A stretch of 55,729 nt of DNA, taken from the IMG/VR virus record IMGVR_UViG_3300045988_139511, positions 1 through 55,729 of that record; one strand, given 5' to 3'. The notes under the pieces were generated by a model. It ran no database searches. It had not been told where the DNA came from and worked only from the letters and a program-made list of their open reading frames with translations. This stretch comes from a virus. The position numbers were made by a program, and so were the translations under genes. The stretch's first letter is position 1; every line of letters starts with the position of its first letter. Shown here in pieces: positions 46,784 to 46,921 of this stretch.

Positions 46784-46812
46784 TTGACATAAAACAGGTG
46801 TAATAGTATAAT
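46784..46812 (+). promoter_or_regulatory. Perfect-consensus sigma-A promoter with no downstream ORF
   Basis: TTGACA 46784-46789, exactly 17 nt, TATAAT 46807-46812. Confidence 0.75.
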
Positions 46813-46818
46813 ACTAAT

Positions 46819-46921
46819 TGTAGTCAGCTCTCAACTGACTATATAGATTAAGTATCTCGTTATTTAATCTGTTTTGTGTGTGAATAGAGGTAGGTTAGTA
46901 GCCTATCTCTTTTCTTTTTTT
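46819..46921 (+). ncRNA. Predicted ~100-nt sRNA (two 7-bp hairpins, GU-rich single-stranded seed, terminator)
   Basis: Hairpins 46821-27/46835-41 and 46845-51/46864-70, seed GTTTTGTGTGTG 46871-46882, terminator stem 46886-94/46902-10 plus a T-run. Confidence 0.55.

Follow-up and report, generated by a model that had tools for sequence, protein, structure and literature searches.

A predicted small RNA gene of a phage-plasmid and its complementarity to Shine-Dalgarno-proximal leader elements

What is made from a consensus promoter that stands in front of no gene? The question is raised by the interval between the endolysin gene and the convergent parR gene in IMG/VR virus record IMGVR_UViG_3300045988_139511, a 55,729-nt stretch of phage-plasmid DNA which was analyzed at its full length (hereafter, the window). 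An original prediction, made from the letters of the sequence, had placed in this interval the gene of a small RNA (sRNA) of about 100 nt, antisense to the CA-rich leaders of the early phage genes, and had assigned to it a role as a switch or in immunity, which, like the direction of regulation, can only be inferred. The analysis reported here indicates that the ~100-nt RNA gene is very probably real, and the model best supported by the data, and the most likely one, is that of a multi-target translational repressor resembling GcvB.

The RNA gene and its conservation

The promoter (46784-46812, plus strand) comprises a -35 hexamer TTGACA at 46784-46789, a 17-nt spacer and a -10 hexamer TATAAT at 46807-46812. 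As originally described, it agrees with the consensus at 12 of 12 positions and no gene follows it: it is the sole perfect match within 45.5-48.5 kb, and the interval from the endolysin stop (46775) to the parR stop (46953) holds no open reading frame (ORF) of at least 30 aa. Together with a terminator, the promoter delimits a predicted non-coding transcript of about 103 nt (46819-46921, plus strand), in which there is no ATG.

Folding of 46819-46921 gave a minimum free energy (MFE) of -35.6 kcal/mol, compared with -16.3 +/- 2.6 kcal/mol for shuffled sequences (z = -7.45; 0/200 shuffles equal). The fold comprises, all on the plus strand, hairpin 1 at 46820-46842 (8-bp stem, loop CUCUCAA at 46828-46834), hairpin 2 at 46843-46872 (12-bp stem, 3′ arm AUUUAAUCUG, loop AUCUC) and an intrinsic terminator at 46886-46921 (stem 46886-46910, U-tail UUUUCUUUUUUU), and leaves the stretch UUUGUGUGU unpaired at 46873-46881. 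The layout of hairpins, unpaired tract and terminator that had been proposed was therefore recovered; the "two perfect 7-bp hairpins" are present, but the 7 bp are the Watson-Crick cores of the 8-bp and 12-bp stems. The core of the RNA, UUAAUCUGUUUUGUGUGUG, spans 46864-46882 (plus strand) and includes GUGUGU at 46876-46881.

The terminator scan found no other plus-strand terminator between 45500 and 46886, so that the terminator of the RNA is the sole one available to the upstream late/lysis operon, and late transcripts reading through the endolysin gene would end in the RNA sequence. Opposite it, at 46965-46935, the parMR operon has a terminator of its own. Rfam models gave no match at gathering score in the window and nothing relevant at E-values up to 10 within 46700-47000, and literature searches returned nothing on this RNA element, in line with the original remark that it was not recognized as a described one.

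Two side observations concern the loop of hairpin 1. Its reverse complement, TTGAGA(G), forms the -35 hexamer of a minus-strand promoter-like site (TTGAGA-18-TATACT, 46834-46805), and the loop itself, CUCUCAA, could pair with GAGAG in a Shine-Dalgarno (SD) sequence.

Relatives were found via homologues of ParR and are related metagenomic phage contigs of up to ~56 kb, all arranged ParM-ParR, with an intergenic region of ~175 nt and a convergent endolysin gene. The element occurs in them in eight distinct versions, always in the endolysin-parR intergenic slot, and a covariance model built on it finds exactly one copy per related phage contig. Among the seven variants with a readable promoter, the -35 hexamer is TTGACA in six and TTGACG in one, the -10 hexamer is TATAAT in six and TATACT in one, and the two are spaced by 17 nt in all seven, with a spacer identity of merely 12-53%. 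The transcript, with 69-88% identity compared with 66-81% for parR, is at least as well conserved as the neighboring protein genes.

RNAalifold recovers the three helices from these variants: pairing is kept in 94% of the helix cells, with compensatory double changes at five pairs, a result reached by 0/500 shuffles, and it falls to at most 51% when the register is slid. Three of the stem pairs with compensatory double changes belong to hairpin 1, the stem of which is rewritten in several lineages with its loop CUCUCA(A) kept in 7/8 variants, and two belong to the terminator stem, while the stem of hairpin 2 is conserved, with one-sided A-U to G-U changes only. The core UUAAUCUGUUUUGUGUGUG is identical in 8/8 variants, save for the length of its U-run (4 or 6) and the number of its GU repeats. 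The gene, its structure and their conservation are thus observed in silico. As far as comparison of sequences can tell, conservation and covariation over eight variants exclude a chance juxtaposition of promoter, hairpins and leader match, and we rate the RNA as a gene under selection and as a new RNA family.

The covariance model found no copy in four Clostridium perfringens plasmid loci with a related ParMR, nor in two more distant phages. These plasmids (L186, L187, L191 and L201) were considered as a source of the RNA and rejected, as neither the RNA nor the leader motif described below is present in them. Scans of IMG/VR with ParM peptides, a 16-mer of the seed, a gapped core pattern and the endolysin returned no locus with the RNA; a scan with a 15-mer of the promoter returned 98 chance matches besides L029, the one true relative, whose sequence does not include the RNA locus.

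Complementarity to leaders of the phage

Most of the leaders on which the RNA is predicted to act belong to a repeated promoter-leader cassette (TTGACACATTTGAGAC ... TATAAT). This cassette is found in seven copies on the plus strand, at 8825, 18958, 19646, 20333, 21865, 25078 and 25716, and at the end of every cassette leader is a CA-rich block immediately followed by a GGAGAG SD sequence. The original count of eight early leaders was not reproduced: there are seven cassette copies, and two more leaders with the motif, those of parM and of the gene at 50238, had been missed. The targets need not be early; the cassette at 25716 heads a gene (25801-26745) with Pfam Resolvase and HTH_7 matches that lies just upstream of the large terminase gene.

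Complementarity to the RNA is exact at 19020-19032 (13/13), 19032-19043 (12/12) and 21978-21988 (11/11) and nearly so at 25185-25198 (one mismatch in 14) and at 19742-19755 and 20425-20438 (two mismatches in 14 each). The sequence CACACACAAAACAG occurs five times with at most two mismatches, against 0.17 expected, and 0/100 shuffles reach five, so that the claim of leader complementarity beyond chance holds.

Binding was scored as ddG = E(cofold) - E(RNA) - E(target), in which the opening of intramolecular structure is charged, over the -50 to +12 regions of 84 called genes. RNAduplex, which works without intramolecular structure, was tried and replaced by this score because it was misleading, the U/C-rich terminator tail pairing with any purine-rich mRNA. 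The best 9 of the 84 gene starts were the seven cassette leaders, parM and gene 50238, with ddG values of -12.4 to -18.6 kcal/mol and an all-gene median of -3.7 kcal/mol.

The first-ranked predicted site lies at 21978-22009 (plus strand; ddG -18.6, z = -4.1), in the leader of the gene starting at 22004 (promoter 21865). Also on the plus strand are the sites at 25772-25797 (gene 25801-26745, promoter 25716; ddG -18.0, z = -4.0), 25184-25222 (gene 25225-25680, promoter 25078; ddG -17.8, z = -5.5, 0/100 shuffles equal), 19021-19051 (gene 19057-19572, promoter 18958; ddG -17.0 to -17.4, z = -3.3), 19743-19771 (gene starting at 19768, promoter 19646; ddG -14.6, z = -2.4), 20426-20457 (gene 20453-20755, promoter 20333; ddG -12.8, z = -1.2, 9/100 shuffles equal) and 8876-8901 (gene 8903-9337, promoter 8825; ddG -12.4 kcal/mol, rank 9/84, z = -2.4). 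Outside the cassettes, the parM leader is predicted to pair through ACACAUAAAACAAUUAAAUAGAGAGAUA at 48243-48270 on the minus strand (ddG -17.5, or -19.3 with a shorter target window; z = -5.9, 0/100 shuffles equal), and gene 50238-50708 through 50210-50232 on the plus strand (ddG -16.6, z = -4.0, 0/100 shuffles equal); this gene encodes an HTH_36 replication-initiator-like protein and is the first past an origin with iterons and DnaA boxes. Pfam and PHROGs searches with the nine target proteins mostly gave no match, and no antirepressor domain, so that the regulon cannot be given a function.

Hybridization better than that of dinucleotide-shuffled leaders had been anticipated, and the real leaders did pair better: with 100 shuffles of each leader the z values ranged from -1.2 to -5.9, and for 8/9 leaders at most 2/100 shuffles were equal. 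GUGUGU (46876-46881) is used in 9/9 predicted duplexes, which reach into the 3′ arm AUUUAAUCUG and the loop AUCUC of hairpin 2, complementary to CAGAUUAAA and GAGAU of the leaders, respectively. The duplexes cover the mRNA from about -41 to +5, and all of them are predicted to span the SD, a position that agrees with the proposed occlusion of ribosome binding. Both the CA motif and the SD are predicted to be unpaired in every cassette leader fold.

The spacer of the cassette promoters begins with a conserved, putatively operator-like motif, CATTTGAGAC, which is kept in the leader regions of relatives (L196, L197 and L029). The promoter of the RNA is without it and is probably not co-regulated with the predicted targets. 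As a side observation, most cassette leader transcripts carry an SD-like GGAGG/AGGAGG in their first ~12 nt, far from the start codons (8860-8872, 21900-21912, 25113-25125), which resembles a 5′ stabilizer.

The pairing was also computed in relatives, by combining the RNA with leader regions found on its own contig (L184 with L196, L189 with L197) and, as a third pair, from one metagenome (L199 with L029). In all three pairs the top-ranked partners of each RNA are the cassette leaders and parM of its own lineage. The replication slot of L184 holds a Rep3 gene not homologous to gene 50238; this gene, too, carries the motif and ranks first, and the L029 leader homologous to that of gene 25225 pairs with the L199 RNA at -24.9. 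Six phage lineages retain ACACAUAAAACAAUUAAAUAGAGAGAU as the motif of their parM leader (ddG values of -11 to -23), and it is absent from the parM leaders of the C. perfringens plasmids with a related ParMR. Complementarity and its conservation across lineages are therefore, like the RNA gene, an in silico observation.

Proposed mode of action and alternative readings

In the model which we infer for expression, timing, titration behavior and sign of regulation (repression rather than activation), a ~103-nt trans-acting base-pairing RNA would be made from a strong, seemingly unregulated promoter, and its sequence would also be borne as the 3′ end of late/lysis transcripts reading through the endolysin gene. 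First contact would be made by the single-stranded GU tract (46873-46881), nucleating on an accessible CA-rich element (ACACACAAAAC-like) located 8-25 nt upstream of the SD. The pairing would then zip along the 3′ arm of hairpin 2 and its loop (AUUUAAUCUG with CAGAUUAAA, AUCUC with GAGAU), and the resulting duplex, over about -41 to +5, would keep out the 30S subunit and put a CA-type translational enhancer out of action. The targets would be the first cistron of at least nine transcription units, namely the seven TTGACACATTTGAGAC cassettes, parMR and the replication-initiator operon, with a common translation threshold for the target operons as net effect. Leaky transcripts may be silenced in this way in the plasmid-prophage state, or the operons may be shut down when late transcription floods the cell with the RNA, two roles which the data fit alike and cannot distinguish; the RNA could be titrated when many target promoters fire in a burst. 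That the RNA acts on these leaders by base pairing, with repression as outcome, has on the evidence of sequence a somewhat better than even chance of being correct.

The specificity of the pairing was examined by exchanging the seed. With random plus-strand 25-mers in its place the observed total was reached in 0/200 cases, in a null that is partly confounded, since any exchange of the seed breaks up hairpin 2 as well and sets its 5′ arm free. Under the same null, the total was reached by mononucleotide-shuffled seeds in 8/200 cases and by random minus-strand 25-mers in 5/200; GU-versus-CA composition therefore carries much of the binding energy and the exact base order adds less, which weighs against the repressor model. 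So do several other points. The seven cassette leaders are paralogous, so that the nine targets are not independent coincidences, and the leader of 20453 is the weakest case, scarcely above its shuffled versions. Extended pairing must open the 12-bp hairpin 2. The seed is nearly invariant and, because it hardly varies, there is no clean compensatory covariation between seed and target, nor do the lengths of U-run and GU repeat track those of the leader A-run and CA repeat consistently. Finally, the start of the transcript is an inferred one, placed 7 nt past the -10 hexamer in a TGTAG context common to the leader promoters, the gene calls behind the target ranking come from an ad hoc caller, and the host assignment points to Clostridium by ParM and terminase similarity only.

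The RNA could be trans-acting and have its relevant targets elsewhere, in host mRNAs or only in the adjacent parM, the match to the cassettes being then a by-product of a CA-rich enhancer style. The characterized phage sRNAs lambda PreS and DicF do act on host genes, parM offers the longest near-continuous duplex and is adjacent to the RNA, and composition alone yields substantial binding. This reading is nonetheless unlikely in our view, as in several leaders the complementarity is not confined to CA/GU but takes in CAGAUUAAA and GAGAU(A) as well, and as every phage lineage examined has both the leader motif and the RNA, and the ParMR plasmids have neither.

If the cassette leaders are the targets, the sign of regulation has to be considered, on which complementarity is silent: the RNA might pair with the same leaders and activate or stabilize them, guarding the 5′ untranslated region (UTR) from RNases or recruiting ribosomes, and sRNA-mediated activation has a precedent in PreS acting on dnaN. 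The leader folds argue against it, with no SD-sequestering structure to relieve and the CA motif and SD already unpaired, and so do the predicted duplexes, which cover the SD itself in the usual geometry of repression; we give activation a small chance of being right.

A smaller chance still is given to an element that works mainly in cis, as a structured 3′ UTR and terminator of the late/lysis operon and an insulator against the convergent parMR, with a promoter that is incidental or loads RNA polymerase. Its terminator is indeed the only one on the plus strand after the endolysin gene, and the parMR operon has a separate terminator of its own facing it at 46965-46935. A terminator, however, needs neither a conserved promoter of fixed spacing nor two extra covarying hairpins and a 19-nt invariant single-stranded core, and the promoter hexamers are kept in all variants while the neighboring bases drift. 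A cis-antisense or type I antitoxin-like RNA, to which the weak minus-strand promoter-like site (TTGAGA-18-TATACT, 46834-46805) overlapping hairpin 1 might point, or a functionless chance juxtaposition is very improbable, given that no gene or ORF of at least 30 aa lies opposite 46819-46921 (the parR stop is at 46953, and the terminator behind it ends near 46935) and given the conservation and covariation in eight variants.

Read as a multi-target repressor, the RNA would have its closest mechanistic analogue in GcvB and DapZ of enterobacteria, which likewise use a GU-rich single-stranded seed against CA/ACA-rich sites just 5′ of the SD of many mRNAs; the resemblance is a functional one. DapZ is derived from a 3′ UTR, and the phage RNA shares its position, closing an operon at the 3′ end and having a promoter of its own. 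Like GcvB, the phage RNA has many predicted targets and is closed by an intrinsic terminator with a U-tail. Unlike GcvB, it is encoded by a phage and not by a chromosome, its targets would be the phage's own operon leaders and not host amino-acid transporters, and its host is probably a Gram-positive Clostridium. Homology of sequence or structure is lacking as well, the GcvB model (Rfam RF00022) giving no gathering-score match in the window and being absent from the matches at E up to 10 in 46700-47000. In PMC3879156, GcvB is described as pairing immediately upstream of the SD and silencing ACA translational-enhancer motifs.

The original prediction had likened the RNA to P1 c4 and P4 CI; neither was matched by Rfam models, and both are loose analogies, GcvB and DapZ being closer. 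The CI RNA of P4 is a small phage RNA complementary to repeats in early leader transcripts; it confers immunity, makes transcription terminate prematurely and arises by processing of the very leader that it controls. The present RNA is likewise a small phage RNA matched to repeated leader sequences, but the complementary sites abut the SD/start codon and are followed by no terminator-like hairpin in the leader folds, an arrangement that would fit translational control better. The c4 RNA of P1 is processed from the operon that it controls and has a single target, icd/ant. The phage studied here similarly has a plasmid prophage and a putatively trans-acting RNA, whereas the latter has an independent promoter, at least nine dispersed predicted targets with no antirepressor domain in them, and no Rfam C4 match. 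PMC8546580 presents c4 (immI) as a trans-acting RNA of a plasmid-lysogenizing phage that blocks phage protein synthesis and pairs near the ribosome-binding region. VpdS and lambda PreS are likewise sRNAs encoded by phages, act in trans and modulate the life cycle of the phage; these are Gram-negative, Hfq-centered and unrelated in sequence, and neither is described as matching a repeated leader element common to most operons of the phage itself. VpdS, from the Vibrio phage-plasmid VP882, affects phage and host mRNA levels (PMC12197685).

Genome context and significance

The genome is ~55.67 kb long and circularly permuted, bases 1-55 of the window recurring at 55675-55729; this 55-bp overlap of the window ends indicates a circular assembly. 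The GC content of the window is ~36%, with a strong G>C skew of the plus strand. A siphovirus-type gene set (terminase, portal, capsid, tape-measure protein, holin and an Amidase_3/SPOR endolysin) is accompanied by a plasmid module with actin-like ParM (47309-48229) and ParR (46953-47309) on the minus strand, plus the HTH_36 Rep-like gene. Iterons and DnaA-box-like repeats are found close to this module: parC-like repeats ACTCAGTATATAC lie upstream of parM at 48290-48620, and five copies of a ~23-bp iteron (CTATTCGATTATCGAG...) at 49943-50058 and three DnaA-box-like repeats TGTGGATAA at 50087-50120 adjoin the replication genes.

ParM is 77% identical to ParM of C. perfringens pCpb2-type plasmids and the large terminase is 66-70% identical to terminases of clostridial prophages, and from these similarities the host is probably Clostridium. 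Searching 185,579 species-representative genomes with the gapped core pattern found no isolate host; the single match, in a Gammaproteobacteria metagenome-assembled genome, was taken as chance.

Other candidate regulators are encoded in the window. The sole minus-strand gene of the 1-46 kb block, at 16186-16581, specifies a Cro/C1-type protein (HTH_3/HTH_26), a candidate lysogeny repressor, and a sigma-70 region-4-like small protein is encoded at 17316-17636. Given the presence of both, the RNA would be one regulatory layer of several.

Several repeated elements were also noted. An 18-bp palindrome (TTGAATATTAATAATCAA or TTGATTATTAATATTCAA) is present in eight copies, at 8788, 21828, 25041, 30126, 35370, 41855, 51041 and 54124, three of them just upstream of cassette promoters and others, in the structural region, coming after terminators; the palindrome probably serves as a binding site for a regulator. 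A motif (T)GTATTA-N5-6-TGTAAC(AA) follows nine terminator hairpins on the plus strand, at 8750, 10174, 10747, 14653, 23377, 30088, 51179, 53707 and 54099, the copies at 8750, 30088 and 54099 being weaker. It could be a second class of promoter, for which the sigma-70 region-4-like protein might be the factor. A short ORF-less unit at 51097-51212 (plus strand) ends in a strong terminator, carries AAUGUGUGUAAAA before it and has syntenic weak model matches in L182 and L184. Its segment 51105-51212 was considered as a second GU-seed RNA and rejected, the covariance-model match being weak (23.9 bits) and the GU stretch not being kept in L182 or L184.

Elsewhere on the plus strand, an HNH endonuclease gene divides that of a family A DNA polymerase into two ORFs (10815-12197, 12415-12951, 13035-13964). 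A Tad2-like anti-Thoeris protein and a nucleotide-salvage cluster, the latter with thymidine kinase, deoxynucleoside kinase, nucleoside 2-deoxyribosyltransferase and a Na+-dependent nucleoside transporter, are encoded as well (3913-4167; 4523-8555, plus strand). In-frame repeats of 33 nt are found in the tape-measure gene and repeats of 66 nt in the gene of a 1005-aa tail fiber (38018-38345; 42663-43056).

The most far-reaching interpretation of the RNA can be offered only tentatively, since we consider it doubtful that all of its parts hold. A single constitutive RNA would be the post-transcriptional master regulator of a Gram-positive phage-plasmid, holding down the first cistron of nearly every operon driven by host sigma-A (the seven cassettes, including the one that leads into the packaging genes, and the operons for replication and partition); titration of the shared pool by a burst of transcription would turn graded derepression into an all-or-none lysis-lysogeny or early-late switch, and the RNA would form a layer of immunity without a described counterpart in Firmicutes phages.

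Post-transcriptional control by phage-encoded sRNAs is so far known from a handful of Gram-negative systems, and a 2025 review of phage sRNAs contains no entry for a phage of Clostridia, Bacillus or another Gram-positive group (PMC12197685). The locus described here offers a compact case that can be tested by sequence, with one RNA, one invariant seed and at least nine leaders in one 55-kb genome, conserved in diverged relatives. If the repressor model is true, the conserved CA-rich block of the phage leaders would be explained, and one shared RNA threshold would coordinate replication, partition and many accessory or early operons of a phage. It would also provide a portable RNA-leader pair for expression engineering in clostridia, and the logic of GcvB, a GU seed acting on CA-rich enhancers, would extend to a Gram-positive virus.

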